Assembly (NCBI GenBank): GCA_963694325.1
Contig: CAVOCV010000001.1
Coordinates: forward strand, 1-43,119
Reading direction: 5' to 3'
From: Candidatus Thalassarchaeaceae archaeon
GTDB lineage: Archaea > Thermoplasmatota > Poseidoniia > Poseidoniales > Thalassarchaeaceae
DNA length: 43,119 bases
Numbering within the stretch: the first letter of the stretch is position 1; every line of letters begins with the position of its first letter. The notes under the pieces were generated by a model. It ran no database searches and had not been told where the DNA came from. It saw only the letters and a program-made list of their open reading frames with translations. A program made the translations under genes and the position numbers. Of the stretch, positions 11,173-29,805 are shown in pieces.

Positions 11173-11183
11173 CTGGGTCGACC

Positions 11184-13644: not shown

Positions 13645-13696
13645 GGCCTCGCGACCGACAACCCCTCTATGAGGATAGCGGATGCTGTGAGAGACC

Positions 13697-14404
13697 TCAC
13701 AGCCGCGCGGTCGGTTTGCGAATGAGTTCGCAACCGCCCGGTGCAGCGAGAACGATGACATCGGCCGTGTTGGTGAACAGGCCGACTTCGACAACGCCAG
13801 CGATGGCGCGAAGCGCCGCTTCCATCTCGACAGGGTCGGCGATGGTCGGCCCGAACTCGGCATCGAGAATCGGGTTTCCATTGTCCGTCAGGTAGTCCGG
13901 TCCGCGTCGGTTCACGTTTCCAGGACAGATGGCTTGGATGCGGCGTTGGGTTTGTCGCCAGCCGTAGGGGTTGACCTCGATCGGTAGGGCGAAGGCGCCG
14001 AGGGTTTCGACGCGCTTGCTGGCGTCGGCGACAACGACCATCCCTGCGCTCGCTTCGGCAACGATTTTCTCACGCAGGAGTGCGCCGCCACCGCCCTTGA
14101 TCAGATGTAATTCACCATCGAATTCGTCAGCCCCATCGATGACGAGATCTAGGTGTGTGCAATCATCCCAACTCAGGAGTGGAATTCCCTGCTCTATAGC
14201 GATGGATTCAGTGGCGTCTGAGGTCGGTATCCCACTGATTGTGAGTCCCTCTTCGCGCATCCTCCGGCCGAGTTCGAGCAGGGTGTATTTGACGGTGGAT
14301 CCTGTGCCGAGTCCGACCCTCATTCCATCGGTAACGAAGGCGCATGCGGCGATTCCAGCGTCTCGCTTCATCGCCTCTTTCTCGGCCTCGCTGAAGTCTG
14401 CCAT
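13697..14404 (-). CDS. rpiA: Ribose-5-phosphate isomerase A
   Basis: Motifs GLGTGSTVKY, DGADE and KGGGGALLREK. 235 aa. Confidence 0.9.
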   Translation of the reverse strand: MADFSEAEKEAMKRDAGIAACAFVTDGMRVGLGTGSTVKYTLLELGRRMREEGLTISGIPTSDATESIAIEQGIPLLSWDDCTHLDLVIDGADEFDGELHLIKGGGGALLREKIVAEASAGMVVVADASKRVETLGAFALPIEVNPYGWRQTQRRIQAICPGNVNRRGPDYLTDNGNPILDAEFGPTIADPVEMEAALRAIAGVVEVGLFTNTADVIVLAAPGGCELIRKPTARL

Positions 14405-14514
14405 CGGGCCGTCCTCAGCCGATGAAGGGCATATCCTTTCGCACCGTTCCGGGCACTTTACCGGCCCGTAGGGCCGCCACAGGTTTCAATATCCTCCAAT
14501 CGTGTCCGGAGGTC

Positions 14515-17500
14515 ATGGGAGTCGAGCGGACGCCATGGTTCACCTCAATCCTCCTAGTCGGATTGCTGCTCGGCATGAGCGCGGGGATGATGGTTCAACC
14601 CCCCCAAGACGACCTCGATGATGCGGTTCAACCGAGACGCTCCGGCATCAATGAACCGACGCCGATGGCCATCACCAATGCGGATGGCACCTCTTCAGCA
14701 CTGAAGGCAGAGGTGCCGATGGGACATACCGTCGAGGAGATCAACGTCTCGCTCTCACCCGACCCACTGGCCTTCAACGATGCCTTTACCTGGTCCGACC
14801 TCGGCGATTGGAATGCCTCTGGTGCAGTTCTTGACCGTGTCAATGTGAATCGCACCGATGGCCTCCAACTCCTACCCCGTTTGTGGGAATGGGATTTCGA
14901 GAACGCCAACCATGGCTGGAGCCTCGGCACCGGCTGGTTGTGGGGCTATGATTCCTGCCTCGGTGCGTCCGGTGGAGTCCACGGTGGCGCCAAGGCGATC
15001 TACACCTACAATTGCAATTATCCAAACGGGGTGCCCTCATCGGGCTACTTCGCGACCTCGCCCGTGATCGATTGCGGCGGTTGCAGTGGCACGTGGGATT
15101 TGAAATATTGGAAGCGCCTCGGGATCGAGTCTTACTATTACGATGATGCACAGGTCCACGTCAAGGATTCCCAAGGCAGTTGGCAGACGGTCTGGGACTG
15201 GAGTTCCTACTCCACCAATCCGACCACGTGGACCCAGATGAACCACGATATCTCCACCCACGTGAATGGAAATTCAAACCTGCAGATTCGATTCAAACTC
15301 GGCCGTACCGACGGTTCGGTCACCTACACTGGCTGGAATGTCGATGACGTCTCTCTCGAACCACAGAACGGTGCCGGCGGCGGCGAGCAAGCGAACTGGA
15401 CCTCCGCCCGATTCGGCCCGGGTGTCACCGGCGCATACGGCACTGAAGGGGTGCGCTATGGCATCACCTCGATCGATGCAACGATTCCATCGGGTTCAGG
15501 CCTGACGATGTCGGTTCTCGACGGTGTGTCGAAGACGGCGATTCCTGGATTCCTCAATGTCGAGCCGACCTGGGTCGACCTCGGCAGCATTGACCCTGAG
15601 AAGCATCCGAGCCTGCGCATCAAGTTCAATTTCGATGCGACCGGCGGTGCGACCTCGCCGATCGTCCATGAAATTCACATGAACAATCGCTACGGGTCGA
15701 CCTTCAATGCCGACCCGACCACCGCGGGTTGGACCTTGGCTGGGATGAACTGGAATGGGAACGCGATTTCCGGATCGGGTACACTCACCTCCCCCGTCTT
15801 CACCTCGCACCGCGCCCTCACTCAACTCTCTAGTTCAGTCGGTGGATCTGGCACGTGGGTCACCGATGTGAGCCTCGACGGTGGGCCGTGGTTCAGTGCC
15901 TCCAACACCGGCGTGACCTCATTCTCAGCGTGGGGCAACAGCCTTCAGATCCGCATGTCCTGTGCCGGTTCCTGCACCTTCAACGATGCACAATTCGATT
16001 TGATTGGCGGGCACCTACCTACACATCCGCGCTTCGACATCGGCCTCGATGGCTGGGCCGAGTGGCAGATGGTTCACCCACACATTTCTGAGTGGGGCTG
16101 GCAGAGTCGGTTCACGAATGGTCAACTGTCCGCGGACATGACCTGGTCCGCTCCCGGATTGAAGCAGGTTGGCATGATGTTGGCCAAGACCGGCCTCGAT
16201 TCCTTCGCCGTTGAACTCGCACCGTTCGCAGCGACCGACCCAGTCGATGTCTCGATATCGGTCGATGGTCAGGTGCTGTTCACCAAGACCGTCGCCTTCG
16301 AAACCGATGCCGAGACCTATGCGCTCAGTGCCCAAGAGATGATTGAACTCAATGAGAATCTCTCCAATGCCCTGACCTTCTGGGCGGCCCCCGGCAACAT
16401 CCAGTACGCCATCGCGACGGTCGATGTCCAGGGTTCGTATGGCTCGATTCGCGTCGGCGGATTGTCCGCGCTGTACCGGCCGACAGCCAATCTATCCTTC
16501 CCCGTCGATTCAACCTTCGTGATGTCGATGAATCAGGCCCTGCCCGATGCCCAGATCGAATCGCAGGCCCGCCTCGTGCCTCTGACTCTCAAATCATCCA
16601 GTGCCGGTGGGGCACTCGGCGTTATCACCAATTTGATATCGGCCGAAAACGTGCTGCTCGATGGGGCCGCCTTGGCGAATTTCTCGTCGTGGGAACCCGT
16701 TACCCCGTCGTGGCAGTGGATGGAGATGGAGTTGAATTATTCATGGGATGTAGGCGTACCTTCCTATCTCTCCATGATGGTCGAGACCAACATGCTCGCA
16801 GCATATTACGAATTGCCAGTCGACGGCAGCGCCCCCGTCTTGATCTTGCTCGAGGGGACGAATGTCTCCGACCCTATTCGATTCGGTAGCATCGTCTTCG
16901 ATTCGCATGAAGATGGTCTCAACGCCAGCGTTCAATTCCAGACTGAAGCCAGCCTCGATGATTCGGCGAAATTCAAGGTCAGCGCTTCTCTCTATATGAC
17001 GGATGGTTCGCCCTCGCCGCCATACACAGAACGATCTGGACAGATGAGCCAAGGTGTGGAAAACGACGTCGAGGTCATCGCCTGGGATGTCTACAATGAA
17101 CTCGGTTTGGCGATTCCACCTGCAATGTCCTATCTCAGATCCAATTCACCCATCTCGATTCAGACACACATCGGATTCGAGAACTTGCTCGGCACACCCT
17201 CGAAGAATCCGAGAACCGGCGATGTGCGCGTCCACCTGCTCGAGAATGGCGTCGCGAAGATGAACACGACCAACATCTTGGAAGGCCACGTCGTCTTTGG
17301 CTTCACCACACCCGTGGGCACGGGCAACGTGACCTATTCATTGGACATCGAGCCGCTCGCAGGACAAACCTTCGTTGCCGGCATCCCTCTGAATCGGACG
17401 TTCACCGTCGATTCCCTGAACCCTCAGGTCGTCGATCAGAACATCGATCGCTTCGACCACCGCACACCCTCTCCGAACCAACTCATCCAAATCGAGGTGC

Positions 17501-19842
17501 ACGACCGCCCGGTCCTGCCCACCGATCTCACCCTGATGGTATGGCGTGAGTGGGCTGACGATATCGACGGCGATGGCGAAATCGATGAGGATGAATTCAC
17601 CGGCATGCTGCTGCAGCAACCCGGAAATCTCAGCCAAGCCCGTGGTAATTACACCCTCCTGCTCGATGATACCGCTGCAACCGAAGGCGATCTGGTCGCC
17701 GCATATGTGGTCGGTGCGGACCCCGCGGGCAATGTCATCATTGACTCGGGCACGAATACACTGGGTGACCAATTGTTCACCTATCAGGTGATGCCGGACG
17801 GACCTCCCTCTCTACCTGGGCAAGGTGGATTCGCCAGTTCACCGGATGGAAAGTTGGCCTACCTCCACCCCGGGGTGGATTATGAATTTGGACTCCACAT
17901 CATCGAACCCAACGGTTGGGCTGACATCGGCGATCTGCGCTTGCAGTTGGCCAGTAATTCTGTCTCAGACACCCTCGCAGTCGAGTGGTCCGCCTCGGAT
18001 GGACGCTGCGTCGTGCTCTCGCCTCACATGGAGGTTGAGCGCTGTGGTGTCCGGGCTTGGACAGGCGAATTGACGCCGTTCAACCCCGACCTCGAGTTCT
18101 TCGTCGAGTTCAGTCTCAACTGGACCCTGCCCCGCGGCGGGGACATCCGATGGGAGCCATCGATCGAAGTCACGGATCGCGGCGGACAAGGCGCGTGGCT
18201 CTCGTTACCGCAACTGCGCTGGCGATACTCGCCCGACCTCGCGATCGACACCGATGATATGACCCTCAGCCTGGCGTCGGGCACCTATTCCGAAGAGGGG
18301 GCATGGGTTGCCCCCGGCTCTTCGATCTCACTGAATGGAGCGCTACACTTCCCGGTCTCAGGCGTGCGACCGAGCGAGACATTCGATGTGCGCATCCTCC
18401 TCGATGGTCAGGAGACGATGGTCGTCAGTGAAGATGGCGCGTGGTCAGCCTCCTTCGATGCACCCGATTTCTCCGGTTCATTCCCGCTCACCGTGGAGAT
18501 TGCTGATTTGCCCAGCGGTGCCAATGACGTGACGGACACGACAGCTGCTCTGCGCTGGATTGTTGTCGACCCGGTCGGTCCTGAGGTCGTCGAGGCCGTC
18601 TCGCCTCGGCCCGGCTCCATTCTGCCAAAGGAATCACTCGGCGCACTGCAGATTCAAGTTCGTATCTCTGAACTCGAACAGATCGACGAAGAGAGTTTGG
18701 TCTTGCACTGGAAGATCATCCGAGGCAGCGACGTCCGCGCTATCCCACTGCTTCACGGCGAGTCCGCGCTGACCATCGAAGGTGGCAACCTCGCCGGTCA
18801 ATCGATTATCGCTGGCACAATCCTCGACCTCGCCAGCCAGATTCCCGAGGAATACTACAGCGATGACCTGCGATTCCACATCTGGGTCGAGGGCAACGAC
18901 ATGGCGGGCAACCCCATGGAGATGCCATCCGGCACCAATCAGGATGACAATCCATTCGCGTCTTGGGCGCTCGAGCGCCGAGCACCCGTGTTCACCTTGA
19001 GTGAAGACGATGTTCGCTACTCCCGCTCTGGAGATGTCGAGGCGGGCACGAATGTGATGATCACCGTCTCGGTGCGCAATGATGGAGAGGTCGACGGCGT
19101 CGTCCGCATGCGCCTGACCGAAGTTCACCTCGACGGCACAGAGCGCGAATTGACCGCCGTCGCCGTCCAAGAGACGATCCCCGCAGGCGGCCTCAAAGAA
19201 ATCCACGTCGACTGGGTCCCCGATACCGCAGGCCGCCAATGGATCCGCATCACCATCGAGGATGGCCCCACCGTCAACGGACCCACATTGCACGCGGTTG
19301 CAGGCGAGGATGACAGCCTCATCGGTTCGATCTTCGGCGGCGTTGACCTGACGTGGAGTGTCCTCTTCATCGGCCTGATCATCCTGCTCGCCAGCGTGCT
19401 CCTCATCGCCCTGCGCAGCGGCGGTACCCGCTCCTATTCCATCGAAGATACCGAGGATGACGGATACTGGGACGACGACGGTGAGGGTGAGGGTGATGAC
19501 GGATATCTTGAGGCCGGTGAAGAAGCACAACCGGAAGGATTCCCCTTGGATTATCGGGATGAGACTGTGCGCCACGTCATGACTCAGAATGGTATCTCCG
19601 ACACCATCGGCTTCCTACAGCACGCCCGCGGCTTCGACCGAGATGGCAACGGCTACCTCAACGAGGCTGAACTCAACATGGCCGCATCCTCCTTTGTGGC
19701 GGCGGGCAGCCTGGTCGAAGCACAGGTAGGCACCCCCGCACTCGACCCCTCAACCATGACCGGCGATCAGTTGGCGTGGTACGAGGAAGCGAAGAAGTGG
19801 GGCGGCTACTATGACGAGTCCGGCACTTGGATTCCCCTCTGA
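14515..19842 (+). CDS. Giant (about 1775 aa) membrane-anchored surface protein: signal/anchor, MAM-like jelly-roll, long beta-rich region, CARDB-like domain, TM helix, acidic cytoplasmic tail with EF-hand
   Basis: I take the ATG at 14515 (MGVERTPWFTSILLVGLLLGMSAG). The MAM-like segment WEWDFENANHGW...GWNVDDVSLEP is at about 14884..15363. The CARDB-like segment VMITVSVRNDGEVDG...WIRITIEDG is at about 18988..19266. The TM helix WSVLFIGLIILLASVLLIAL is at about 19351..19413. The EF-hand loop DRDGNGYLNEAE is at 19636..19671. Many N-x-S/T sequons. Confidence 0.85.
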   Translation: MGVERTPWFTSILLVGLLLGMSAGMMVQPPQDDLDDAVQPRRSGINEPTPMAITNADGTSSALKAEVPMGHTVEEINVSLSPDPLAFNDAFTWSDLGDWNASGAVLDRVNVNRTDGLQLLPRLWEWDFENANHGWSLGTGWLWGYDSCLGASGGVHGGAKAIYTYNCNYPNGVPSSGYFATSPVIDCGGCSGTWDLKYWKRLGIESYYYDDAQVHVKDSQGSWQTVWDWSSYSTNPTTWTQMNHDISTHVNGNSNLQIRFKLGRTDGSVTYTGWNVDDVSLEPQNGAGGGEQANWTSARFGPGVTGAYGTEGVRYGITSIDATIPSGSGLTMSVLDGVSKTAIPGFLNVEPTWVDLGSIDPEKHPSLRIKFNFDATGGATSPIVHEIHMNNRYGSTFNADPTTAGWTLAGMNWNGNAISGSGTLTSPVFTSHRALTQLSSSVGGSGTWVTDVSLDGGPWFSASNTGVTSFSAWGNSLQIRMSCAGSCTFNDAQFDLIGGHLPTHPRFDIGLDGWAEWQMVHPHISEWGWQSRFTNGQLSADMTWSAPGLKQVGMMLAKTGLDSFAVELAPFAATDPVDVSISVDGQVLFTKTVAFETDAETYALSAQEMIELNENLSNALTFWAAPGNIQYAIATVDVQGSYGSIRVGGLSALYRPTANLSFPVDSTFVMSMNQALPDAQIESQARLVPLTLKSSSAGGALGVITNLISAENVLLDGAALANFSSWEPVTPSWQWMEMELNYSWDVGVPSYLSMMVETNMLAAYYELPVDGSAPVLILLEGTNVSDPIRFGSIVFDSHEDGLNASVQFQTEASLDDSAKFKVSASLYMTDGSPSPPYTERSGQMSQGVENDVEVIAWDVYNELGLAIPPAMSYLRSNSPISIQTHIGFENLLGTPSKNPRTGDVRVHLLENGVAKMNTTNILEGHVVFGFTTPVGTGNVTYSLDIEPLAGQTFVAGIPLNRTFTVDSLNPQVVDQNIDRFDHRTPSPNQLIQIEVHDRPVLPTDLTLMVWREWADDIDGDGEIDEDEFTGMLLQQPGNLSQARGNYTLLLDDTAATEGDLVAAYVVGADPAGNVIIDSGTNTLGDQLFTYQVMPDGPPSLPGQGGFASSPDGKLAYLHPGVDYEFGLHIIEPNGWADIGDLRLQLASNSVSDTLAVEWSASDGRCVVLSPHMEVERCGVRAWTGELTPFNPDLEFFVEFSLNWTLPRGGDIRWEPSIEVTDRGGQGAWLSLPQLRWRYSPDLAIDTDDMTLSLASGTYSEEGAWVAPGSSISLNGALHFPVSGVRPSETFDVRILLDGQETMVVSEDGAWSASFDAPDFSGSFPLTVEIADLPSGANDVTDTTAALRWIVVDPVGPEVVEAVSPRPGSILPKESLGALQIQVRISELEQIDEESLVLHWKIIRGSDVRAIPLLHGESALTIEGGNLAGQSIIAGTILDLASQIPEEYYSDDLRFHIWVEGNDMAGNPMEMPSGTNQDDNPFASWALERRAPVFTLSEDDVRYSRSGDVEAGTNVMITVSVRNDGEVDGVVRMRLTEVHLDGTERELTAVAVQETIPAGGLKEIHVDWVPDTAGRQWIRITIEDGPTVNGPTLHAVAGEDDSLIGSIFGGVDLTWSVLFIGLIILLASVLLIALRSGGTRSYSIEDTEDDGYWDDDGEGEGDDGYLEAGEEAQPEGFPLDYRDETVRHVMTQNGISDTIGFLQHARGFDRDGNGYLNEAELNMAASSFVAAGSLVEAQVGTPALDPSTMTGDQLAWYEEAKKWGGYYDESGTWIPL

Positions 19843-19885
19843 GCCACAACACAGGGTTGAAAGCGAGGCGGCGTTCAGGTCCCGA

Positions 19886-20184
19886 TGGGATCAGGAGGAC
19901 CACTGACAGTGTACGACACTGAGGAAAGTCCCCTCTGCACAGGTGCAGGTGGTCCGTCGCAAGACGGGTGTCCGGGAGGGCAGGCGCTGTAGAAGAAACG
20001 AATCGGCCCGGGAGCACGATGAATCCGCAAGGAGGAGATTCCCCGACGTCGACTGAGACGAACATCCCCACCGCAGCAAGTCCAAACAGTTCTGTTGACG
20101 GCATCGAGAGGAACGGGTAGGACGCATAGTTGAATGTGGTTAACCGGCAACGGCGAACAGAAAGGGGCTTACTCCCTGATCCCA
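19886..20184 (+). ncRNA. rnpB: RNase P RNA (archaeal type A-like)
   Basis: The universal CR-I motif GAGGAAAGTCC is at 19921..19931. The CR-V-like ACAGAAAGGGGCTTAC is at 20156..20171, with AAGTCC/GGGCTT forming P4. P1 pairs TGGGATCAGG (19886..19895) with CCTGATCCCA (20175..20184). There is a P3-like hairpin CAGTG-TACGA-CACTG and GNRA-capped hairpins (CCGTC-GCAA-GACGG, TCC-GCAA-GGA). It lies in the 392-nt gap between convergent genes. Confidence 0.85.
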
Positions 20185-20234: not shown

Positions 20235-22808
20235 CTAAAGAATATCATCCATCTTGGGCAGGTCATCGTCGACCGGTTCTACCGATGGCGGGGCATCGGC
20301 GAAGAGGTCGCGCTCGAAGGCGGACATGGCCATCTGTTCGGGGTCGTTGGCCTTCGCGCGCCCGCGCGCAGACAAGATGGCGGCCACGACACCGACGTTG
20401 AGCAGGAGGAGCATGGCGATCATCGCGATGCTGCTGGCATCGATCTCGATGCCACCCGAATCCTTGGACTCTGGCGTACCACCGGTGGTCGAGGGGTCAT
20501 TCCCCTCTGGATCATCATCGTCATCAACACTCACCGTCGGCGGGAAGGCGACGTAGAGATGGTCCTCGGCCCAGATGCCATCGACGCTGACCCGGGTGGT
20601 GAAGGTGACGGGGGAGTCTCCCCATATTTCGAAATATTGCGTACCATTGGAAAGGTTCTGCATCGGCAGGAAAAGTGTGTGGCCCTCGTTCTCCAAGACC
20701 ATTGCACAGCCACTCTCACAGGTGATCGTCACGGAGATGTTCGCCGTTCGTGTCTCGGTATCTGGCACTTCCACCAGTTCGAGTTCGACGGTTAGGATTG
20801 GACAACCGCTGATCGACCCTGCAACCTCGGGACAATTATCGTCGGCATCTTTGGGCCCGTCGCCATCGGTATCTCGCTGGGTGATGGCGCAGCCATTCTC
20901 GTCGACCGCATCGAGCCAGGTGGTGAATGGGCAGGTATCGAGGTCGTCGGTGACGCCGTCCTCATCGCTATCTCGCTGATAGGGTGCACATCCATTGGCG
21001 CTGATATCGTCTGAGCCCAAGTCGGTTTGGGGGCAATCGTCCTCTGCGTCGGAGATGCCATCCTGATCCGCATCCAATTGGCTCTCGCCACAACCGATGT
21101 GGTTGACGGGTTCGCCACGCGGCGTGCCCGGACATGAATCTCGGGCATCATCGACGCCGTCGAGGTCGGTATCCCGTTGGGTTGCCGCGCATCCGTTCTC
21201 GTCGACCTCGGCCGCCGCAGGCGTGTTGGGACAAGCATCCTCGGCGTCGACGATGCCATCGCCATCGCCATCACGCTGCCAAGCCGAGCAACCGGCATTG
21301 TCGACGCTGATGCCCGATGGTGTCTCAGGACATTGATCCAAATCATTGGTGATGCCGTCTTCATCTGCATCGAGTTGATTCTCAGCACAGCCCTCGCCAT
21401 TGACGACCTCGCCGACCGACGTGCCCGGACAGAGATCGAAGGCATCCGGCACGCCGTCACCATCCTCGTCGGGCGGCGGCAGGTCACACCCATTCGCAGC
21501 GATCTCAACCCCTGGAAGGGTATCTGGGCAATCATCCAACACATCTGCGAGTCCATCTCCATCGATGTCCTCCACACCCATCAATTGTCGCATGTAGAGG
21601 TCGACCAGGTCGTGCATCGTCAGCGTAGGGTGCATCTTGTCGAAGTAGATGTATTCCTCCGCATTTGGTGCAATGGAGTCTCCATTATCACAGGTGTATC
21701 CGTCGTGGTCACAGGCGGGGTGGGTGATGTTGGTCAACCCGAAGTAATCTGGATTGTTGTACACGACATCGAACATTTCCCAGACCATGCCTCGATGTAT
21801 CGTCAGCGAGGTGGTGCTGATTGTGTCATTGAGCATTGAGTGTAGTTTGAAATTGAAATCGAGAATCCTCTCGTGCATCGCACGTACTCCAGCCGCATCT
21901 TTTTCCTCGTTGACACGGGGCACCGTATCGAGTGGTGGCAATTCGAGAATCAAGAATTCCGTCGCACCCGCACCGGTGAGTTGCGTGATGTGTCCTTCGA
22001 TATTGTCGACAACCTGCTGGGTATCGCCATCGTCGCTGTGAACAAAGTCATTGCCGCCGGCCCAGATGATGACCAATTCATTGGGGTTGATCTGGTGGTT
22101 CTGAAGGTAGTCGTCGACCTGTTTGCCGACGTTTGGGATGACCAAGAGATAGAGACCATCCCCTGAATGGGCGCCGCCGTATGCGCGATTATTGCCGCTG
22201 CCCGTGCCCCGGCCCGGATTCATTGACGTGCCCATGAAGCTGCCAAATTGTTCTGCCCACACCTCGCCATTTGAGAATCGGCCATTCCAATAGGGTGGGC
22301 TGTCAGGTGTGCTCCACTGATTGTATGAATTCCCCATGTCTGACAGTGAATCGCCAAAGATGACGATGTCGGCATAGGACACTGGAAGTGTATTCGTGAA
22401 TGAACTGAAGTTCGCCTGTGCCGTCGCAGCGATGCCTTGGTAATCGGAGAGATTGACGATCAGTCGCTTGAGGAATACATTTCCTGATGCGAGATGATTG
22501 GCTTGAATCTGAATCTCCACCGCGGTATTGCTCGCAGTGAAATTCTGCTGGCCGCTCTGGACGAGGCGATCTTCTCCAGTGCTGCCATTCCCGGTACGAA
22601 TCTGCCAGTCCAGGGTGTAGAGTCGACCCGAGGACAAGCCCCAGGTACCGACGGTCGCTTCGAATGTCTCGGACGAGCTCCAGGCCTCTTTGGAGATGAT
22701 GATTGCCATGCCTTCTGAACCGCGGGCCTCAGCATCGACCGGCTGTACACCCGTCCACGACATCAGCAATAATGACGCGACGAGGAAGAGGGTACCTCGC
22801 TGCTGCAT
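20235..22808 (-). CDS. Secreted, C-terminally anchored SGNH/GDSL hydrolase fused to eight thrombospondin type-3 Ca-binding repeats
   Basis: Signal peptide MQQRGTLFLVASLLLMSWTGVQPVDA. SGNH blocks are IVIFGDSLSDMGN, WAGGNDF and FDKMHPT. The repeats follow DxDxDGxxDxxDxCPxT...GC. C-terminal TM IAMIAMLLLLNVGVVAAIL is followed by an acidic 50-aa tail. Confidence 0.85.
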   Translation of the reverse strand: MQQRGTLFLVASLLLMSWTGVQPVDAEARGSEGMAIIISKEAWSSSETFEATVGTWGLSSGRLYTLDWQIRTGNGSTGEDRLVQSGQQNFTASNTAVEIQIQANHLASGNVFLKRLIVNLSDYQGIAATAQANFSSFTNTLPVSYADIVIFGDSLSDMGNSYNQWSTPDSPPYWNGRFSNGEVWAEQFGSFMGTSMNPGRGTGSGNNRAYGGAHSGDGLYLLVIPNVGKQVDDYLQNHQINPNELVIIWAGGNDFVHSDDGDTQQVVDNIEGHITQLTGAGATEFLILELPPLDTVPRVNEEKDAAGVRAMHERILDFNFKLHSMLNDTISTTSLTIHRGMVWEMFDVVYNNPDYFGLTNITHPACDHDGYTCDNGDSIAPNAEEYIYFDKMHPTLTMHDLVDLYMRQLMGVEDIDGDGLADVLDDCPDTLPGVEIAANGCDLPPPDEDGDGVPDAFDLCPGTSVGEVVNGEGCAENQLDADEDGITNDLDQCPETPSGISVDNAGCSAWQRDGDGDGIVDAEDACPNTPAAAEVDENGCAATQRDTDLDGVDDARDSCPGTPRGEPVNHIGCGESQLDADQDGISDAEDDCPQTDLGSDDISANGCAPYQRDSDEDGVTDDLDTCPFTTWLDAVDENGCAITQRDTDGDGPKDADDNCPEVAGSISGCPILTVELELVEVPDTETRTANISVTITCESGCAMVLENEGHTLFLPMQNLSNGTQYFEIWGDSPVTFTTRVSVDGIWAEDHLYVAFPPTVSVDDDDDPEGNDPSTTGGTPESKDSGGIEIDASSIAMIAMLLLLNVGVVAAILSARGRAKANDPEQMAMSAFERDLFADAPPSVEPVDDDLPKMDDIL
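20799..21572 (-). repeat. Eight tandem about 100-bp coding repeats (thrombospondin type-3 units) inside the SGNH gene
   Basis: Protein residues about 413-670 hold eight copies of D-x-D-x-DG-x2-D-x2-D-x-CP-x-T...(N/I)GC, each with two Cys. The repeats leave alternative frames open, hence the spurious track ORFs there. Confidence 0.8.
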
Positions 22809-22810
22809 GC

Positions 22811-22827
22811 CACTGCCTACGGCAGTG
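22811..22827 (-). promoter_or_regulatory. Intercistronic hairpin (7-bp perfect stem, GUA loop on the coding strand) between the RND exporter and SGNH genes
   Basis: The plus strand reads CACTGCC-TAC-GGCAGTG, so the minus strand reads CACTGCC-GTA-GGCAGTG. It ends 3 nt upstream of the SGNH ATG (22808). Confidence 0.5.
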
Positions 22828-22869
22828 TGGGAATTGAACCTGTTGCTCAGCTGGCGGTGGAGGCCCGCT

Positions 22870-25800
22870 TTACTCGAGCACAGCGTCCATCGTGTCGGAG
22901 ACGGCCATGACGAGATCGGTGTCGAGATCCTGATACTCTCCCCTTCCTGTGATGCGATAGAGCATGGTATGCCAGCCCACCAACATGGCGGGCAACAGGA
23001 TCGCGCTGGTCAACAGGGCGAGTGTGATGAGGAGCATCATCAGCACGAAGAAATTGCGCAGGCCGGGGATGTCGACCAACAAGCCCGCTGCGAGGCCAGC
23101 ACAGGTCGTCGCCGTGGTCTCGAAGATGGTCTGTCCGGTGCGGGAAATCGTCTTGACGATGCCCGCTGGGGTCTCTTTCTCCTCTCTGATTCGGTCAATG
23201 ATGTGAATCGAATCATCGACGCCGATGCCGAATACGATTGTCGAAACCATCGCTGTGAATACGTTGACGTTGACATTGCCACCGCGCATCAGCAAGGGCT
23301 GCCACAAGACGACCACGCCGACGGCGACCATGGTGAAGAAGGCGAGACGTGGCGAGCGGAATAGAATCGACATGACGATCAGGAGGACGAACATCGTCAT
23401 GATGGTCGCATCGGCTTGGGCAGCGTGGATGCCGACGTTGATGTCGAGTGACAGCGGCAGGCCGCCGGTCAATTCGCTGACCTCGACGTCTTCAAGGCCG
23501 GGAAATCCTTGACCGAGAATGCTGTCGATTTCATCGCGCAGGACGCCAGCATCGGCCAGATTGATGTAGGGCTGATTGACGTAGACAAGGGTCCGAGTCT
23601 CACCGCCAAGGGCCTCGACCGCCTCGTTCATCAGCATCGACCGAATCTCCACCGAGAGGGTGTCAAATGCCACATCGACCATTTTGTCCTGAGAGGAAAT
23701 AATCGGCAGAATGAATTCACCGCTGATACCACATTCCACGGTCGCAGGGTCGGCCCAGCAATCCGAGTGGAGGATGTCCCACAAGCTCTGGTCATACAGT
23801 TGAACACCGCTAGCATTGAGGTCGACGTGGATCGCTTTGAGAATCGTCACCAAACTCACGGTCGTCGTCTCTGGGACATTGCTGACCTCAGTTTCCATCA
23901 CATCGATGGCATCGAGAATGTCGAGATCCCGAATGGGTGCGTCATTCGAACCATCCGTGTAATCGGTTGCATCGACGATGAACATGTTGGTCTGACCGCC
24001 ATCGAATACCCGGCTGTATTCGGACAAGGTCTCGTAGGTCTCCAATCCCGGTGGTACCTCGTCGGATGAACCGGTGATCTCCTTGCCCATCTCCGCCGTG
24101 ATCATCGAAAGGCCGACCGCGCTGACCAGGAGGGCGACGATGATGACAGCCCACCACGCCTGAACGGGGATGTGACCGATGCGCTGCCAGGCGCGGTCGG
24201 CTGTGGCCAATCCACGTTTTCGATACCGCAAGACCCAACCGAGAGCGGGGACCATGATCATCGAGAAGAAGAAGGTGCAGGCGATGCCGAGCACCAGGGT
24301 GAGGCCGACGGTTCGCATCGGTTTGATCGGAACGATTTCTGGCCACGCGAGGACGCTGAATCCGATGATTGTGGTCAGTGCGGAGAGGAAGATCGCATTG
24401 CCTGTTGTCATCACCGCATCCACGGTTGCACCGAGGTAAATCGCGGGGTCCCACGGGTCGATTTCGTCGATGGTCTCGCCCTCTCGCTCCGCAGCCCATG
24501 CCTCTTCAGCGGCCCGTTCAAGTCGTTCGTTCCGACCCTCTTCGATGCGATTGATGAGATGCAGGGAATAGTCGACACCGAGGCCGATGAGAATCGGTCC
24601 AGCAGCGATGATCATCGGTGTCAATTCGATGTCGGCCATGACGGTGATACCGAATGTTGTGGCGAGACTCATGACGATTGGCAGTCCACAGATGAGCAAG
24701 ACCTTCGGATTGCGGTGCAGAACCCACATCGTGATGGCGACAAAGGCCAGAGAGATGGGCAACATGCGTTCGAGTTCAGAATAGACCGCATCCGAGACAT
24801 CGTGTAAGACAGGGGTCAATCCGGTGACGGTGATGGCGCGGCGGTTGCCACCATTGGACTCGGGGACTCTCCATTCCGTCTTGCCGGTCTCATCGTCCTC
24901 GTAGAGCATCGGTGAGAGCCTCTCGCCATACTGGCGACGGCAGAGTTCGCAGGAGGATGCATCCGATTTTTCATAGATTAATTCATGCGCATAGGCGATG
25001 AAGGCCTTGTGATCTCGAACCGTGTCCCCGGCGTCCCCCTTCGGGTCGACCCTCGCATCGATCTGGGTGTCCTCCATCTCGAAGCGGATGCCCATGACGA
25101 CAACCGCCGTGTCCCAGACTCCGTCGCCATTGGTGTCGCGGACGAAATTCGTCATCAGATCGCCAGCGTTCTCGACCAGTCGATCGACCGTATCTTGCTG
25201 GTCGGGGATGCTGTATCCTTCGTTGGTATTGGTGCTGGAGGCAGGACAGTTTTGCAGTGATACGCCCTGAATGCCGTGATCCTCCATGGAGCAGGCGAAG
25301 CGTGCACGGCTGCTGTTCGCCTCCTTGATGATCTGTGATGGTGAGAGGATCCAGACGACGCCATCCTCACGGCCTCGGTCCTCTTTGTTCCAATCCAGGC
25401 CACGTTGGTAATTCCCTTGGAGCGATTCATCATCGCCTTCAAGATATGATAATTGAGTGAGAATGGCTACGTCTGTGACGTTTTCCGAGCCTCGTTCATT
25501 CGGATTTTCGATGGCGTTATCCGTATGGATGTAGAGCATGACGATGTCCGTTGACCAACCCTCTCGGACCTCGAGAAGGAGTTCCTTGGACTCGGCTCCA
25601 TCGGGCAGGTAGACCTCGACATCGCCGTTGATCTGATGCTGGAAGTCCATCGCATACTGGCCGATGAATCCCGTCGCGAGCAGGAGAATGATGATGACCG
25701 CCCCGGGGGAGCGTTGGATGGCCCCGTAGAATCCTCGGATGGGAACCTCGGCCGCATCGTGGACCCTCTCACCGATGCCATCCATCTTGTCGGATACATT

Positions 25801-25959
25801 GGCCCACATGTCCTTGGCGCCGCCGATGGTCGGCCCGGAGAGCATCGTCCGAACCGGGCCGAGAACGCGGTCGACCAGCGTCGACCGGTCTGAGGGAGGC
25901 GCCGATTCATCCGCCATTCGGGTCGGTCGAATCGCCGACCGATATTGAAGGCGCCGCAT
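22870..25959 (-). CDS. RND-superfamily exporter, MMPL/COG1033-like (12 TM, two large extracytoplasmic domains)
   Basis: 1029 aa. It is an internal duplication, with GLGVDYSLHLINRIEE in the first TM bundle and GIGVDDSIHIIDRIREE in the second. Long soluble loops follow TM1 and TM7. Confidence 0.85.
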   Translation of the reverse strand: MRRLQYRSAIRPTRMADESAPPSDRSTLVDRVLGPVRTMLSGPTIGGAKDMWANVSDKMDGIGERVHDAAEVPIRGFYGAIQRSPGAVIIILLLATGFIGQYAMDFQHQINGDVEVYLPDGAESKELLLEVREGWSTDIVMLYIHTDNAIENPNERGSENVTDVAILTQLSYLEGDDESLQGNYQRGLDWNKEDRGREDGVVWILSPSQIIKEANSSRARFACSMEDHGIQGVSLQNCPASSTNTNEGYSIPDQQDTVDRLVENAGDLMTNFVRDTNGDGVWDTAVVVMGIRFEMEDTQIDARVDPKGDAGDTVRDHKAFIAYAHELIYEKSDASSCELCRRQYGERLSPMLYEDDETGKTEWRVPESNGGNRRAITVTGLTPVLHDVSDAVYSELERMLPISLAFVAITMWVLHRNPKVLLICGLPIVMSLATTFGITVMADIELTPMIIAAGPILIGLGVDYSLHLINRIEEGRNERLERAAEEAWAAEREGETIDEIDPWDPAIYLGATVDAVMTTGNAIFLSALTTIIGFSVLAWPEIVPIKPMRTVGLTLVLGIACTFFFSMIMVPALGWVLRYRKRGLATADRAWQRIGHIPVQAWWAVIIVALLVSAVGLSMITAEMGKEITGSSDEVPPGLETYETLSEYSRVFDGGQTNMFIVDATDYTDGSNDAPIRDLDILDAIDVMETEVSNVPETTTVSLVTILKAIHVDLNASGVQLYDQSLWDILHSDCWADPATVECGISGEFILPIISSQDKMVDVAFDTLSVEIRSMLMNEAVEALGGETRTLVYVNQPYINLADAGVLRDEIDSILGQGFPGLEDVEVSELTGGLPLSLDINVGIHAAQADATIMTMFVLLIVMSILFRSPRLAFFTMVAVGVVVLWQPLLMRGGNVNVNVFTAMVSTIVFGIGVDDSIHIIDRIREEKETPAGIVKTISRTGQTIFETTATTCAGLAAGLLVDIPGLRNFFVLMMLLITLALLTSAILLPAMLVGWHTMLYRITGRGEYQDLDTDLVMAVSDTMDAVLE

Positions 25960-25962
25960 GAT

Positions 25963-25984
25963 TGAGGTCCCTAAGGGGACCTCA
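25963..25984 (-). promoter_or_regulatory. Intercistronic hairpin (9-bp stem, 4-nt loop) between the GT2 and RND exporter genes
   Basis: TGAGGTCCC-TAAG-GGGACCTCA sits centrally in the 34-nt spacer. It ends 4 nt upstream of the exporter ATG (25959). Confidence 0.5.
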
Positions 25985-25993
25985 TGGCAGTGT

Positions 25994-26953
25994 TCAGTCG
26001 AGACCGAACTCGCGAACCAGAAGACGGCGCATCAGGCCTCTCGCACCTTGAAGGACGAGTGCTGTGAAGCAGAGAGACGCGCCGAGCATGCCGATCCAAG
26101 CGGCGGTCAGGCCTGGCCCGACAGACAGTGATACCGTGCCGTCGGTCAACCCTTCAACCTCGTTGAGGGCGCGGAATCCAATCGCAGTGCCCGTGGCGAG
26201 AAGCGAAATGCCCGGCACACCGAAGAATAGCAAGGGTTTCTTTTGAGAGAGGGAGATCAATGCGAAGCTCAGCACGGTGAATCCGTGTGAGAGGGCTGTG
26301 TATCGACTTCCCTTGGGTACGTCGTAGCGAATGCGTGTCGGCACCTCTGCCACCTTCAGGTCGAGGTCCTTGCAGAGGTTGAGAATTTCAAGGCAGGATT
26401 CCATCCCATCCAAGTCGATGCTCAGGCGCTCCAGCGCCTTCGGCCCGAAGGCGCGGAAACCGCTCTGCGTATCCTTGATGTTGAGGTCGCTCGAGAGGTT
26501 TGATGCAGCAGTGATGACTTTGATCCCAAGCGCGCGGTACGTTGGCATGCTATCACCTGCGCCACCGGAGACGAATCTGGACCCGATGACGACGTCGGAT
26601 TCGCCTGCGAGAATTGGGGCGAGAAGGTTCGGAATATCCTTGGATTCATGCTGACCATCGCTGTCGAGAATGATCAGCGCGCGGGCGCCTCGCTCTTGGG
26701 CGATGGCGAAGATTGTTTTCAGCGCACCACCATAGCCACGATTGGCGCGGTGATGGTGAACGGTCGCTCCGAGCTTCCGAGCGATCCGCGACGAGGCATC
26801 CGAAGAGCCGTCATCGACACAGAGAACCTCATCGACGTGCGGCATGCAACCGAGCACGACGCTGCCGATCGTCTCCTCTTCATTGAAGACGGGCATGGCA
26901 GCCAGAATCGGCCCTTCTCCAAGGGCGACGGCCACATGCGGTGCGCTCGACAT
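25994..26953 (-). CDS. Family-2 glycosyltransferase, dolichyl-phosphate hexose synthase-like (AglD/AglJ/DPM1-type) with C-terminal TM hairpin
   Basis: ATG at 26953 (the track start at 26962 is TTG). Motifs PVFNEEETIGSVV, VLCVDDGSSDAS and ILDSDGQH (DxD). The C-terminus KKPLLFFGVPGISLLATG... gives two TM helices. Confidence 0.85.
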   Translation of the reverse strand: MSSAPHVAVALGEGPILAAMPVFNEEETIGSVVLGCMPHVDEVLCVDDGSSDASSRIARKLGATVHHHRANRGYGGALKTIFAIAQERGARALIILDSDGQHESKDIPNLLAPILAGESDVVIGSRFVSGGAGDSMPTYRALGIKVITAASNLSSDLNIKDTQSGFRAFGPKALERLSIDLDGMESCLEILNLCKDLDLKVAEVPTRIRYDVPKGSRYTALSHGFTVLSFALISLSQKKPLLFFGVPGISLLATGTAIGFRALNEVEGLTDGTVSLSVGPGLTAAWIGMLGASLCFTALVLQGARGLMRRLLVREFGLD

Positions 26954-27078
26954 CGGCCTCAACGCCCAACGACTTCCATTTCAACACTTCCCCGTCCCTG
27001 TCGCCCGTAGGGCGGGCTTGAGGAAGTGGGGATGCCGCGGGCCCATCAGGCCCACGGCAACCCGTGTGGGTATTCCGC

Positions 27079-27351
27079 TCAGTTGGAGAGCAGCTGGCTC
27101 ACGGTCGTGACCGTGCGCTCGCCTTCGATGACCTTGCGCAGTGCGGACAGACTGATCACCAGGGGGATGTAGGTCTGGCCATCGCTTGTCGCGTAGGTTT
27201 CGCAGTCGCCGAAGGCGTGCTGGTTGATCGAGAGCTTGATCGCTCCGCCGGCATTGCTGCGGCGGGCGTAGCCCACGAGGAGGGACGGCGTCATGCCACC
27301 CTCCGAGGTTTCGTTCATCTGTTGTGCTTCATTTTCATTTTTCTTTGCCAT
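27079..27351 (-). CDS. Hypothetical small soluble protein (acidic N-terminus, beta-rich core, C-terminal helix); possible nucleic-acid binder, unassigned
   Basis: ATG at 27351 (MAKKNENEAQQ...; the track start at 27366 is TTG). No family recognised. Hairpin-rich spacers flank it on both sides. Confidence 0.4.
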   Translation of the reverse strand: MAKKNENEAQQMNETSEGGMTPSLLVGYARRSNAGGAIKLSINQHAFGDCETYATSDGQTYIPLVISLSALRKVIEGERTVTTVSQLLSN

Positions 27352-27544: not shown

Positions 27545-28486
27545 ATGCACGTTCTCGTCACCGGCGGTGCCGGATTCATTGGCTCACACCTGGTCGACCA
27601 TCTCGTCGCGCGCGGAGACCGTGTCAGCGTCTATGACAATATGAGCAGCGGGCGCGCAGAATTCCTCGCCCACCACGGCGACGCGGTCCAATTCATCCAA
27701 GGCGACCTGCTCGATCTCGACGCGACCGTCGCGGCGATGGAGGGCATCGAATTGGTCTTCCATCTCGCGGCCAACCCCGACATTCGCCTCGGAACACGGG
27801 TCACGGACACAGACCTGAAACAGGGAACCATCGCAACCTACAACGTGCTCGAAGCCATGCGACGCGCCGAAGTCAAACACATCGCATTCGCGAGCAGCAG
27901 CGTGGTCTATGGAGAGGCGGCCGAGATGCCCACCCCTGAGACCTATGGTCCCCTCTTCCCCATCAGCCTCTACGGTGCGAGCAAATTGGGCTCGGAGGCA
28001 TTGATCACATCGTGGGTCGGCACCTTTGGCCTGAAGGCCTGGCTCTTCCGCTTCGCAAACATTGTCGGCGCCCGCGGCACACATGGCGTCATCTTCGACT
28101 TCATCCACAAACTCAAGGCGGACCCTTCCCGCCTCGAGGTCTTGGGCAATGGCCGGCAAGAAAAATCCTACATGGAGGTCGTCGATTGTGCACGGGCGAT
28201 GATTCACCTCACCGAAACCACGGATGAGGCAGTCAACTGCTTCAACCTCGGCACCCACGATACCTGCAGCGTCCGACGCATCGCTGAGATCGTCATCGAG
28301 GAGACCGGATTCAAGAACGTCAGTATCGAGTACACCGGTGGCGATCGCGGCTGGGCGGGCGACGTGCCCAAGACGATGCTCGACCCCGCGCGCTTGTACG
28401 CGAGTGGATTCGAGCCGAACTACAATTCTGAGGAGAGCATCCGCCACACGGCGGCCACCCTGATTCAGGAGATTGGTTTGGAATGA
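27545..28486 (+). CDS. NAD-dependent nucleotide-sugar epimerase/dehydratase (GalE-like SDR)
   Basis: VLVTGGAGFIGSHLVDHL Rossmann motif and YGASK (YxxxK) catalytic motif. 313 aa. Confidence 0.85.
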   Translation: MHVLVTGGAGFIGSHLVDHLVARGDRVSVYDNMSSGRAEFLAHHGDAVQFIQGDLLDLDATVAAMEGIELVFHLAANPDIRLGTRVTDTDLKQGTIATYNVLEAMRRAEVKHIAFASSSVVYGEAAEMPTPETYGPLFPISLYGASKLGSEALITSWVGTFGLKAWLFRFANIVGARGTHGVIFDFIHKLKADPSRLEVLGNGRQEKSYMEVVDCARAMIHLTETTDEAVNCFNLGTHDTCSVRRIAEIVIEETGFKNVSIEYTGGDRGWAGDVPKTMLDPARLYASGFEPNYNSEESIRHTAATLIQEIGLE

Positions 28487-29166
28487 AGACCGATTGCACC
28501 ACCCGCAGAGCCTTGTTCGAAGATGAGAATGCGGATGCTCGCATGGGCGCGACCTTCGTCATCTCTGCGGCCCTGACCATCGCCCTCGTCTTCGTCTGGA
28601 TCATCGCACCGCCGGCCAGCATCGGTGTGAGCGAGGGCCAATTGGCCCCCGAGATTATCGGACAGGGTTACCTGGATGGGGAATGGGAAGATTTCCAACT
28701 CACCGACCACATCAACTTCTCATGGGTCGAAGGCGCAGAAGGGCAATGGATTCTCCTCCAGTTCATCGACACAGATTGCCCCCATTGTTGGAAATCGGGC
28801 GCGGACATGAGTGAGCACTGGCCCATCTTTGGCGATTCAGGCGCCGTTCTCTATGTCACGATCGCCGTCGAGGTCGTCGGTAATGAACACAGCAGAGATG
28901 AGATCGTCGCGTTCAAGGAAAAGCAGGATTACGTGGGATGCAAATCGACCTCAAATTGCGAGAATCGACCCGGTGATGTCCACCCTTGGATGTATGTCGA
29001 TGCCCTGAATTCCGACGTATCCGATGACTATGCTCTGCCCGGCGTCCCCTTCGAATTGCTGCTTTCACCCGATGGAATTGTGATCTGGAATGGGGCCCAG
29101 CACAAGTCGGATGGCTTGGACACGGTCGACAGCGCCCTGCGACACCATTTGATGGAGGATGCCTGA
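28483..29166 (+). CDS. Membrane-anchored thioredoxin-fold thiol:disulfide oxidoreductase (TlpA/ResA/DsbA-like)
   Basis: Its ATG overlaps the epimerase TGA (ATGA). N-terminal TM helix ATFVISAALTIALVFVWIIA. The CPHC active site sits in LLQFIDTDCPHCW. Confidence 0.7.
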   Translation: MKTDCTTRRALFEDENADARMGATFVISAALTIALVFVWIIAPPASIGVSEGQLAPEIIGQGYLDGEWEDFQLTDHINFSWVEGAEGQWILLQFIDTDCPHCWKSGADMSEHWPIFGDSGAVLYVTIAVEVVGNEHSRDEIVAFKEKQDYVGCKSTSNCENRPGDVHPWMYVDALNSDVSDDYALPGVPFELLLSPDGIVIWNGAQHKSDGLDTVDSALRHHLMEDA

Positions 29167-29805
29167 ATGGTCGCATTTGCAGCGGACTGGCCGCTGATGC
29201 TGTTTCTAGCGCCGGTTGTCATTGGCATATTCATCGCGAGCCCGATGGGCGCACCCCGTCTTCCAGAGATGGGTGAAGCCCGCCGACGTCTGCTCGGGCT
29301 GCTTTTCATCGAAGCGGGTGGCTTCACCGCAAGCGTCTACACCTGGATGATTCACAATCAAATGGCCGCGACAGGCACAAGTGAGCTGTGTGCTGTGAAG
29401 GGACTGGTACAGTGTGGCTCCGTCATCGGTGACCCGACCTACAGCACCTTCCTCGGTCTTCCTTGGGGCATCGTCGGCATGGGTGCCTTTGCGGTCATCG
29501 GATGGCTCACACTGGCGATGTTCATGGAAATGAAGGCCGATTGGGCGGAGAAGTACCTCGACTATGCGTGGTATCTGAGCTTGCCCGGCATTGCCGGCAT
29601 CGTCTGGCTGATCATCGTCGAGATGTTCCTCGTCGATGGCGCCCCTCACATTTGCCCGTACTGCACCTGTGTCCACATCGCCTTGGGTGCGACGATTTTC
29701 CTGCTGTACTCGCTTCGCAAGAATCGCGATGCGGGCCACTGGGAAATCACTCGACAGAAGTCCAAAGAGGAACTTCTCGCGCTGGCCCGAAAAGGGCGCA
29801 AGTGA
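29167..29805 (+). CDS. Vitamin K epoxide reductase (VKOR) family protein
   Basis: It starts immediately after the upstream stop (TGAATG). Loop Cys pair CAVKGLVQC is followed by YSTFLGLPWGIVG, and a CPYC motif lies in the last TM helix. Four or five TM segments. Confidence 0.85.
   Translation: MVAFAADWPLMLFLAPVVIGIFIASPMGAPRLPEMGEARRRLLGLLFIEAGGFTASVYTWMIHNQMAATGTSELCAVKGLVQCGSVIGDPTYSTFLGLPWGIVGMGAFAVIGWLTLAMFMEMKADWAEKYLDYAWYLSLPGIAGIVWLIIVEMFLVDGAPHICPYCTCVHIALGATIFLLYSLRKNRDAGHWEITRQKSKEELLALARKGRK

Follow-up and report, generated by a model that had tools for sequence, protein, structure and literature searches.

Several described systems combine some of the components that are dealt with here. 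The mycobacterial MmpL loci for lipid export, which include MmpL3, MmpL4/5 with MmpS and the glycopeptidolipid and sulfolipid loci, hold a resistance-nodulation-division (RND) transporter of the MMPL family (PF03176) next to a glycosyltransferase, with MmpS, polyketide synthase (PKS), FadD and Pap/acyltransferase genes as partners, and bacterial hopanoid (hpn) clusters combine the epimerase-like HpnA, family 2 glycosyltransferase (GT2) enzymes and the RND transporter HpnN. The bacterial GtrB-GtrA-GtrV system follows a logic of loading, flipping and use on the outside, while OafA/OafB, OatA and PatB carry an SGNH domain outside the membrane and depend on an acyltransferase 3 (AT3) or MBOAT membrane partner. 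Here we examine three neighbouring genes in a stretch of 43,119 nucleotides (nt; contig CAVOCV010000001.1, hereafter the window) from a Marine Group II archaeon (Poseidoniales, Thalassarchaeaceae / Marine Group II b, MGIIb). They occupy co-directional minus-strand open reading frames (ORFs) at 25994..26962 (from a TTG start), 22870..25959 (1029 amino acids, aa) and 20235..22808 (857 aa), and encode a GT2, an RND transporter and a surface protein with an SGNH lipase domain and thrombospondin type 3 (TSP3) repeats. An earlier note on this DNA had proposed that they form an operon for one coupled envelope system and had known of no characterised archaeal equivalent. The latter agrees with the literature, in which we found no described function of an archaeal HAE3/MMPL protein, no RND transporter or lipase of Group II archaea, no RND dolichol flippase and no GT2-RND-SGNH locus. 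The coupled three-gene system itself is unsupported. On balance we favour, with some reserve, the view that each of the three envelope genes is promoted separately, that they are inherited together and that they do not constitute a dedicated three-part machine; their adjacency would go back to one or two old insertions into a stable part of the Thalassarchaeaceae chromosome.

The GT2 gene has, besides its TTG start at 26962, an alternative ATG at 26953 that yields a protein of 319 aa (25994..26953, minus strand). Pfam, NCBIfam and PDB searches and transmembrane (TM) prediction place it among the enzymes of the polyprenyl/dolichyl-phosphate sugar synthase type, to which its sequence is nearest. 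The Pfam model Glycos_transf_2 is matched at 2.8e-22 (79.8 bits; cut-off 23.3), whereas the NCBIfam models PpgS (5.6e-36, 124 bits) and AglJ (1.3e-31, 110 bits) stay below their cut-offs of 370 and 325 bits, respectively. Among solved structures, the Pyrococcus furiosus Dol-P-Man synthase (5mlz) is matched at 3.3e-13 in an alignment that spans the motifs VDDxSxD and DxDxQH, i.e., with the DxD-type motifs aligned, and ArnC is matched as well. Two C-terminal TM segments (aa 241-259 and 282-300) follow the catalytic domain, an arrangement shared with archaeal DPMS and AglJ and with the GtrB-GtrA-GtrV system, from which the model of the earlier note borrowed its logic. Unlike that system, however, the locus holds no GtrA-like flippase and no GT-C transferase, and its third gene encodes a lipase-type SGNH protein. 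From its family resemblance, the GT2 would form a dolichyl- or polyprenyl-phosphate sugar on the cytoplasmic face of the membrane, most likely for the glycosylation of surface proteins.

The RND gene (22870..25917, minus strand) probably starts at M15 (ATG at 25917) and then encodes 1015 aa, although its longest ORF reaches 25959. This start is preferred because a database protein that is 100% identical has 1015 aa, because the corresponding spacers in relatives measure 71-75 nt and because a conserved TTCAATATC box lies inside the longer N-terminus. The closest homologues come from Marine Group II archaea (Candidatus Thalassarchaeaceae, Poseidoniales). The protein matches Pfam MMPL (2e-24, 86.6 bits; cut-off 20.5) and, at 8.9e-7, the Sterol-sensing domain. 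Hydropathy and the secondary structure of an AlphaFold2 (AF2) model agree on 12 TM helices, arranged as 1+5 / 1+5 with two large extracytoplasmic domains. The sequences GLGVDYSLH in TM4 and GIGVDDSIH in TM10, with their charged proton-relay residues, are invariant across 12 homologues. Thus, the 12 helices and duplicated motifs reported earlier are borne out, while the reported length of 1029 aa probably is not. The best NCBIfam subfamily is HAE3 (TIGR00921; 5.7e-48, 163.5 bits), which remains below its cut-off of 351.9 bits, followed by actII/MMPL and HpnN (4.5e-20), both far below theirs. A single-sequence search of the PDB gave no match, and in a profile search only the TM bundles aligned, with solved MmpL proteins at E ~1e-4. 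The AF2 model (predicted local distance difference test score, pLDDT, 79.7; predicted template modelling score, pTM, 0.73) found MmpL4/5, MmpL3, Patched, NPC1 and HpnN as its best Foldseek matches (E 1e-21 to 1e-16; TM-score, target-normalised, up to 0.77), and no AcrB-type pump was among the top 50. In its modelled fold the protein therefore resembles the lipid-handling RND class (MmpL, HpnN, Patched-like). It would be a proton-driven member of that class that carries hydrophobic or amphiphilic cargo, either out of the membrane or within it.

The likeness to mycobacterial MmpL loci thus comprises the MMPL family assignment, a fold nearest to MmpL4/5 and MmpL3, the GxGxD motifs in TM4 and TM10 and an adjacent glycosyltransferase. 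The differences are considerable. The host is an archaeon, whose single membrane leaves no outer layer to be reached; genes for MmpS, PKS, FadD or Pap/acyltransferases were not found within ~8-10 kb in the window or in relatives; similarity to solved MmpL proteins is confined to the TM bundles; and the GT2 is of the polyprenyl-phosphate sugar synthase type. Moreover, this RND transporter often lacks a GT2 neighbour in relatives.

The third gene (20235..22808, minus strand) encodes a surface-anchored lipase of 857 aa, as indicated by Pfam, NCBIfam and PDB searches, motifs and a structure model. It consists of a signal peptide, an N-terminal beta-sandwich (aa 33-137), an SGNH domain (aa 148-410), eight TSP3 repeats (aa 414-672), a second beta-sandwich (aa 673-753) and a TM anchor (aa 791-818). 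The SGNH domain (21579..22367, minus strand) is of the PlaA / thermolabile-hemolysin / GCAT type, with its GDSL serine at position 154 (GDS at 152), GGND at 251 and DKMH at 390, and matches Pfam Lipase_GDSL at 2.1e-18 (67.7 bits; cut-off 23.6). The head aligns to the Legionella lysophospholipase PlaA (PDB 8a24) at 8.1e-21 with matching Ser and His blocks, and SGNH blocks I (GDSL Ser), II (Gly), III (GxND) and V (DxxH) can be aligned to both 8a24 and the Vibrio structure 8h09, so that the claim of a full SGNH set holds when judged against solved lipases. The NCBIfam model of PlaA is matched at 6.1e-32 with 111 bits, far from its cut-off of 450, ahead of PlaC, EstP and SseJ; the head is by its sequence a relative of PlaA and not its orthologue. 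Foldseek recovers 8h0b, ChoE and PlaA at identities of only 19-27%. In the structure model the N-terminal beta-sandwich and the SGNH domain are confident, and are followed by TSP3 repeats of low confidence, the second beta-sandwich and a TM helix. The repeats themselves (20793..21569, minus strand), of the calcium-binding type, are well defined by Pfam TSP_3 (1.5e-23, 82.6 bits; cut-off 25) and a pattern search, which finds eight copies of DxDxDGxxDxxDxCP with a 33-aa period and two Cys each. Pattern search and TM prediction together uphold the description of a secreted, C-terminally anchored protein with eight TSP3 repeats, and with this all four domain calls of the earlier note (GT2, MMPL RND, GDSL and TSP3) are confirmed by hidden Markov models above the Pfam cut-offs.

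The described proteins closest to the head are the secreted GDSL phospholipases (Legionella PlaA/PlaC, Vibrio thermolabile hemolysin/PlpA, Aeromonas GCAT and Pseudomonas EstA), with which the four SGNH blocks align. The Vibrio enzymes share the two-domain head of N-terminal beta-sandwich and SGNH domain over ~430 aligned columns. In contrast to those enzymes, this head, whose activity is predicted from sequence, is carried by eight TSP3 repeats and an anchor at the C-terminus, and occurs in an archaeon. The earlier note had left two options for the SGNH protein, i.e., O-acyl remodelling of an exported glycoconjugate at the surface or the harvest of exogenous lipids or glycans. The first resembles the action of OafA/OafB, OatA and PatB on envelope polymers. 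Glycan O-acyl remodelling normally needs an AT3 partner, and neither the three proteins nor their neighbours gave a match to AT3 (PF01757); the nearest relatives of the head are also phospholipases, unlike in those systems. The subfamily (PlaA, thermolabile hemolysin, GCAT) thus favours lipid ester hydrolysis or harvest over glycan O-acylation, which weakens the first option and leaves the lipid part of the second as the better one. The protein would be secreted and tethered by its C-terminal helix; its TSP3 repeats, thought to stiffen with calcium, would form a stalk that holds out a PlaA/thermolabile-hemolysin-type (lyso)phospholipase head, which may hydrolyse ester lipids of other organisms or of particles. 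This putative role fits the lipid-degrading heterotrophy proposed for Group II archaea, for which degradation of both lipids and proteins has been suggested (PMC6461757). The earlier argument that archaeal ether lipids are not SGNH substrates needs a caveat, since mixed membranes, with archaeal ether lipids on a bacterial-type glycerol-3-phosphate backbone, have been proposed for Group II archaea (PMC6461757); we found no statement on ester-linked fatty-acid lipids in that paper.

With the RND transporter as bait, 80 loci were fetched from species-representative genomes and scanned with the window proteins. Three architectures were found, each in a clade of its own in a neighbour-joining tree of the RND proteins. 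Architecture A, GT2-RND-SGNH/TSP3, is present in ~33 species-level genomes that form a monophyletic group with 57-79% RND identity to the window; architecture B, in the sister clade, is GT2-RND without the lipase; and in architecture C the RND gene stands alone, always between the sugar epimerase gene and the RNase P RNA gene (in the window at 19887..20183 on the plus strand; Rfam, 219 bits). The synteny of the triplet among relatives, on which the earlier note had made its proposal depend, does exist, within one clade. Since each architecture keeps to its own part of the RND tree, the pattern is explained by one or two events of insertion or loss. About half of the 80 sampled species have the RND gene without the GT2 gene, and four more distant relatives (28-39% RND identity, all those sampled) have it among housekeeping genes without GT2 or SGNH. 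The constant backbone of the loci is epimerase / RND / RNase P RNA. Of the three genes, RND would be the one that occupied the site ancestrally. In loci without the lipase, the RNase P RNA gene lies 18-44 nt past the RND stop, and in clade A just past the lipase gene; with this gene as anchor of the conserved backbone, the lipase gene is seen as an insertion. Collinearity extends to the unrelated housekeeping genes TruD, EF-1beta and FtsJ. Because unrelated genes are collinear too and one or two events suffice, conserved adjacency is weak evidence of functional linkage here. Two SGNH homologues (~35% identity) in other Poseidoniales sit away from any RND gene, one of them with TSP3 repeats. 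They stem from a word-indexed search with the head, which gave matches at ~35% identity only and missed the true orthologues; the latter were taken from the fetched loci. With the RND transporter alone or with GT2 in other clades, SGNH homologues elsewhere and a recombining head (see below), the term system is not well supported.

Each gene has its own promoter-like box. The boxes, all on the minus strand, are TTGAAAT (26978..26984), 31 nt upstream of the GT2 ATG, TTCAATA (25943..25949), 32 nt upstream of RND M15 and inside the longer ORF, and TTCAATT (22832..22838), 30 nt upstream of the SGNH ATG; in relatives, AAGGTTCAATTC is kept at the same distance from the SGNH start. Further TT[CG]A[AT] sites in the window lie at 14485-14491 and 19857-19863. 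Ten of the 29 window genes, including GT2, RND, SGNH, the epimerase and a giant surface protein, have the box at -34 to -28 (binomial probability 5.5e-9, to be read with the caveat on start codons given below). An independent check comes from RNA genes, whose 5' ends are fixed by RNA models: the box is found at -30 of the RNase P RNA gene in the window and at -30 to -32 in 6/7 relatives, and at -33 of tRNA-Pro. Among relatives it occurs at -31 to -29 for 44/83 RND starts and 17/34 lipase starts. The box is likely a TATA-like promoter element of mostly leaderless genes.

The probable start at M15 would widen the first spacer from the 34 nt given in the earlier note to ~76 nt, while the 61 nt of the second stands. 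A perfect hairpin was reported from each of them, and both are present, but only the first exceeds chance by itself. That hairpin, GAGGTCCC-CTTA-GGGACCTC (25963..25984, minus strand; 8-9 bp), follows the GT2 stop directly and is a probable transcript 3' end or terminator-like structure. It folds better than shuffled sequences (z = -4.27) and is conserved in the close subclade, with compensatory changes in 4/10 pairs, whereas the deep subclade has different stems at this position. RNAalifold accordingly found a consensus structure within the close subclade and none across all 21 GT2-RND spacers, since the stems stand in a different register in each subclade. An extra 7-bp hairpin between box and RND ATG (25923..25942, minus strand) is not conserved in relatives. 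The perfect 7-bp hairpin of the second spacer, CACTGCC-GTA-GGCAGTG (22811..22827, minus strand), lies between box and SGNH ATG, and the folding of this spacer is not exceptional (z = -1.23; 23/200 shuffles fold as well); in most relatives a hairpin of related form stands after the RND stop, upstream of the lipase box. Perfect or near-perfect stem-loops straight after stops are found at many window genes (e.g., 7499-7517, 11159-11178 and 13684-13703), often with loops of 3-4 nt, and others follow the stops at 39325 and 41055 at a distance of ~10-35 nt. Hairpins are thus not special to the GT2-RND-SGNH locus. Oligo-T runs are rare (4/29), and such stem-loops may be a 3'-end or termination signal of this genome. 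In each spacer one would thus read first the 3' hairpin that belongs to the preceding gene and then the promoter box that belongs to the following one. The divergent genes upstream of the locus, which encode an epimerase, a thioredoxin-like protein and VKOR (27545-29805, plus strand), provide a contrast: they are joined by a 4-nt ATGA overlap and a 0-nt gap and, because they overlap or abut, are a true operon. With a box at -30 to -32 for each gene and 3' hairpins after GT2 and RND, the designation operon is weakened for the three genes under study.

The lipase also has a history of its own. In 28/28 full-length orthologues both motifs (GDSL and DxxH) are retained and the TSP3 repeats number 6-8. 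The head (21579-22712) and the spacer (22809-22869), however, occur as two very divergent alleles, with 35-46% head identity, that do not follow the RND tree and have been exchanged by recombination between genomes with 83-96% identity in RND, GT2 and TSP3 stalk. For instance, loci L011 and L012 are 96% identical in RND and 83% in TSP3 and anchor, yet 39% in the N-terminal and 46% in the catalytic domain; L013 and L038 share 92% identity in both RND and GT2, and 35% and 46% in the head. The head in the window is of the L012/L013 type (82%), although the RND proteins are only 74-75% identical. The spacer upstream of the lipase, with box and hairpin, differs in step with the head, so that lipase promoter and head behave as an exchangeable cassette. 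This fits a surface protein that is autonomous and subject to diversifying or balancing selection, and argues against a tight co-adaptation of the lipase with the RND transporter.

Several observations weigh against three separately promoted genes. No oligo-T terminator occurs between them and T-rich sequence follows only the last gene, so that co-transcription by read-through is possible. The only metatranscriptome table found (supplement of PMC9723583) concerns an RND-alone genome at very low coverage. The box is derived from a consensus, and for several genes the start codon was picked once the box had been recognised, which bears on the binomial probability of 5.5e-9. Furthermore, the genes remain co-directional and spacer lengths are kept (71-75 nt and ~60-105 nt) across a deep clade, within which identity falls to 57% for RND and to 43% for the lipase head. 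Finally, the neighbourhood is rich in envelope genes (sugar epimerase, thioredoxin-like/VKOR, GT2, RND, lipase and a 1775-aa surface protein). Independence of expression, substrates and direction of transport are thus inferred, while the domain identities, catalytic motifs, synteny pattern, promoter-like boxes, 3' hairpins and recombination of the head are direct observations.

The alternative that survives best, although we hold it to be rather unlikely, is that GT2 and RND form a functional pair to which the lipase is optional: the GT2 would add a sugar to polyprenyl phosphate or an archaeal isoprenoid lipid, the RND transporter would flip or extract the glycolipid to the outer face, and the SGNH protein would acylate, deacylate or release it there, as in the export and remodelling option of the earlier note. 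The GT2 gene is directly upstream of the RND gene in two clades with its spacing kept, no oligo-T tract separates the genes, and the sugar epimerase gene is the constant divergent neighbour of the RND gene. The RND fold falls in a lipid-transporting class that includes HpnN and MmpL3, and weak NCBIfam echoes of HpnA (1.8e-17) and HpnN (4.5e-20) are found. This points to a possible likeness to the hpn clusters in the combination of an HAE3-type RND transporter, a GT2 and an NAD-dependent sugar epimerase. HpnN is among the fold matches, and isoprenoid lipids are the membrane lipids of the host. However, the scores are far below the family cut-offs, hopanoid/squalene genes are absent, and the GT2 resembles DPMS, AglJ and PpgS, with no HpnI or HpnB model in an NCBIfam scan at E <= 0.01. 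The RND gene does without GT2 in about half of the sampled species and in all four sampled distant relatives; as one gain or loss event is enough, the co-occurrence carries little weight. A conserved hairpin and a promoter-like box stand between the two genes. As to the SGNH protein in such a scheme, its head belongs to the phospholipase clade and not to that of the glycan O-acetyltransferases, the locus has no AT3 acyl-donor partner, and the head recombines independently.

A pairing of RND and lipase, with the GT2 as bystander, seems to us less likely still. In this case the tethered phospholipase would free fatty acids and lysolipids from the membranes of prey or particles, and the RND transporter would either take these amphiphiles in for beta-oxidation (NPC1-like) or expel them for self-protection (FarE-like). 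The head resembles PlaA, Vibrio thermolabile hemolysin and GCAT, which release fatty acids; the RND fold class includes NPC1 and Patched and the protein has a sterol-sensing-domain match; the lipase gene is immediately downstream of RND throughout clade A; and Group II archaea are thought to consume lipids (PMC6461757, PMC9723583). Against this, the RND gene is universal whereas the lipase is limited to one clade, homologues of the SGNH protein elsewhere (~35% identity; one with TSP3) are not beside an RND gene, and the promoter-like box of the lipase travels with the head in recombination. That GT2 and RND together constitute a machinery for the translocation of a dolichyl-phosphate sugar or glycosylated isoprenoid lipid, with the SGNH protein remodelling or releasing that lipid, or lipids of the proposed mixed membranes, at the surface, we consider improbable. 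Slightly less probable again, in our view, is that the SGNH/TSP3 protein serves chiefly for adhesion, or is a target of phages or predators, with its enzymatic head of lesser importance, and that the locus is a variable surface-protein slot beside a housekeeping RND gene. This would agree with the two highly divergent, recombining head alleles, which are typical of surface proteins under diversifying selection, with another giant surface protein next door, and with the reading as adhesion factors of the TSP3 / thrombospondin-repeat genes that are widespread in Group II archaea, those of Poseidoniales included (PMC6461757). However, 28/28 orthologues retain the oxyanion blocks as well as the catalytic Ser and His despite 43-50% divergence, which argues for retained enzymatic function of the head. 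Three genes that are inherited together and promoted separately remain the best-supported reading.

Some features of the surroundings deserve mention. The RNase P RNA gene of the window is convergent with the SGNH gene, and in relatives it is always convergent to the RND gene, or to the lipase gene where present (L003, L005, L016, L040, L046, L058 and L081). The thioredoxin-like and VKOR proteins may supply extracytoplasmic disulfides for the Cys-rich TSP3 repeats and for conserved Cys pairs in the RND loops. Between the epimerase operon and the GT2 gene, and co-directional with the latter, lies a small ORF (27079..27351, minus strand; 90 aa from its ATG) with 48-78% identity in many loci by tblastn. 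It adjoins the RND gene on the upstream side in relatives without GT2, and is a possible partner or regulator of the RND transporter. Pfam and PDB searches gave no match for it even at E <= 10. A strong hairpin (~27040-27064; z = -3.61) stands 3' of its stop, the strongest among the stem-loops at other genes of the window.

Beyond the RNase P RNA gene, a giant surface protein of 1775 aa (14515-19842, plus strand) is encoded convergent to the locus and is kept in clades A and B. It has a signal peptide and, at the C-terminus, a TM anchor; its acidic tail gives EF-hand-like matches, the sequence holds 16 N-glycosylation sequons, and Pfam matches are weak only (CARDB/EF-hand). Its annotated start (14422) is probably 93 nt too far upstream, the true start being M32. 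In two distant Poseidoniia loci (L090, 2306-5926; L091, 2239-5901), the RND gene is divergently paired with a gene for a ~1200-aa secreted protein with a weak CARDB match, and these two proteins are homologues with 38% identity. A recurrent pairing of RND and giant protein was considered and dropped, as BLASTP finds no similarity between them and the giant protein of the window. A supposed paralogous pair in the PMC9723583 genome was likewise rejected, because the 1006-aa gene upstream of the TSP3 gene there has no MMPL annotation. A second GT2 glycosyltransferase (9120-10013, minus strand), 16 kb from the locus, is divergent from an unannotated 280-aa ORF, and both have a promoter-like box at -31. 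The remainder of the window is largely housekeeping; since tRNA synthetases, FttA, FtsJ and other such genes are mixed with the envelope genes, an interpretation of the window as a glycosylation island was rejected.

The GT2, the RND transporter and the lipase are each a new, divergent member of a known family, and no new kind of system is needed to explain the locus. The promoter box and the 3' hairpins offer practical rules for gene starts and transcription units in these genomes, as with M32 of the giant protein and M15 of the RND transporter. Marine Group II archaea, still uncultured, rank among the most abundant archaea of the surface ocean. A lipid-class RND transporter at one chromosomal site in 80/80 sampled MGIIb genomes is a reasonable target for studies on the handling of unusual lipids in this group, and a surface-tethered phospholipase with two recombining heads would give a concrete enzyme for a lipid-degrader lifestyle that has hitherto been inferred from genomes.

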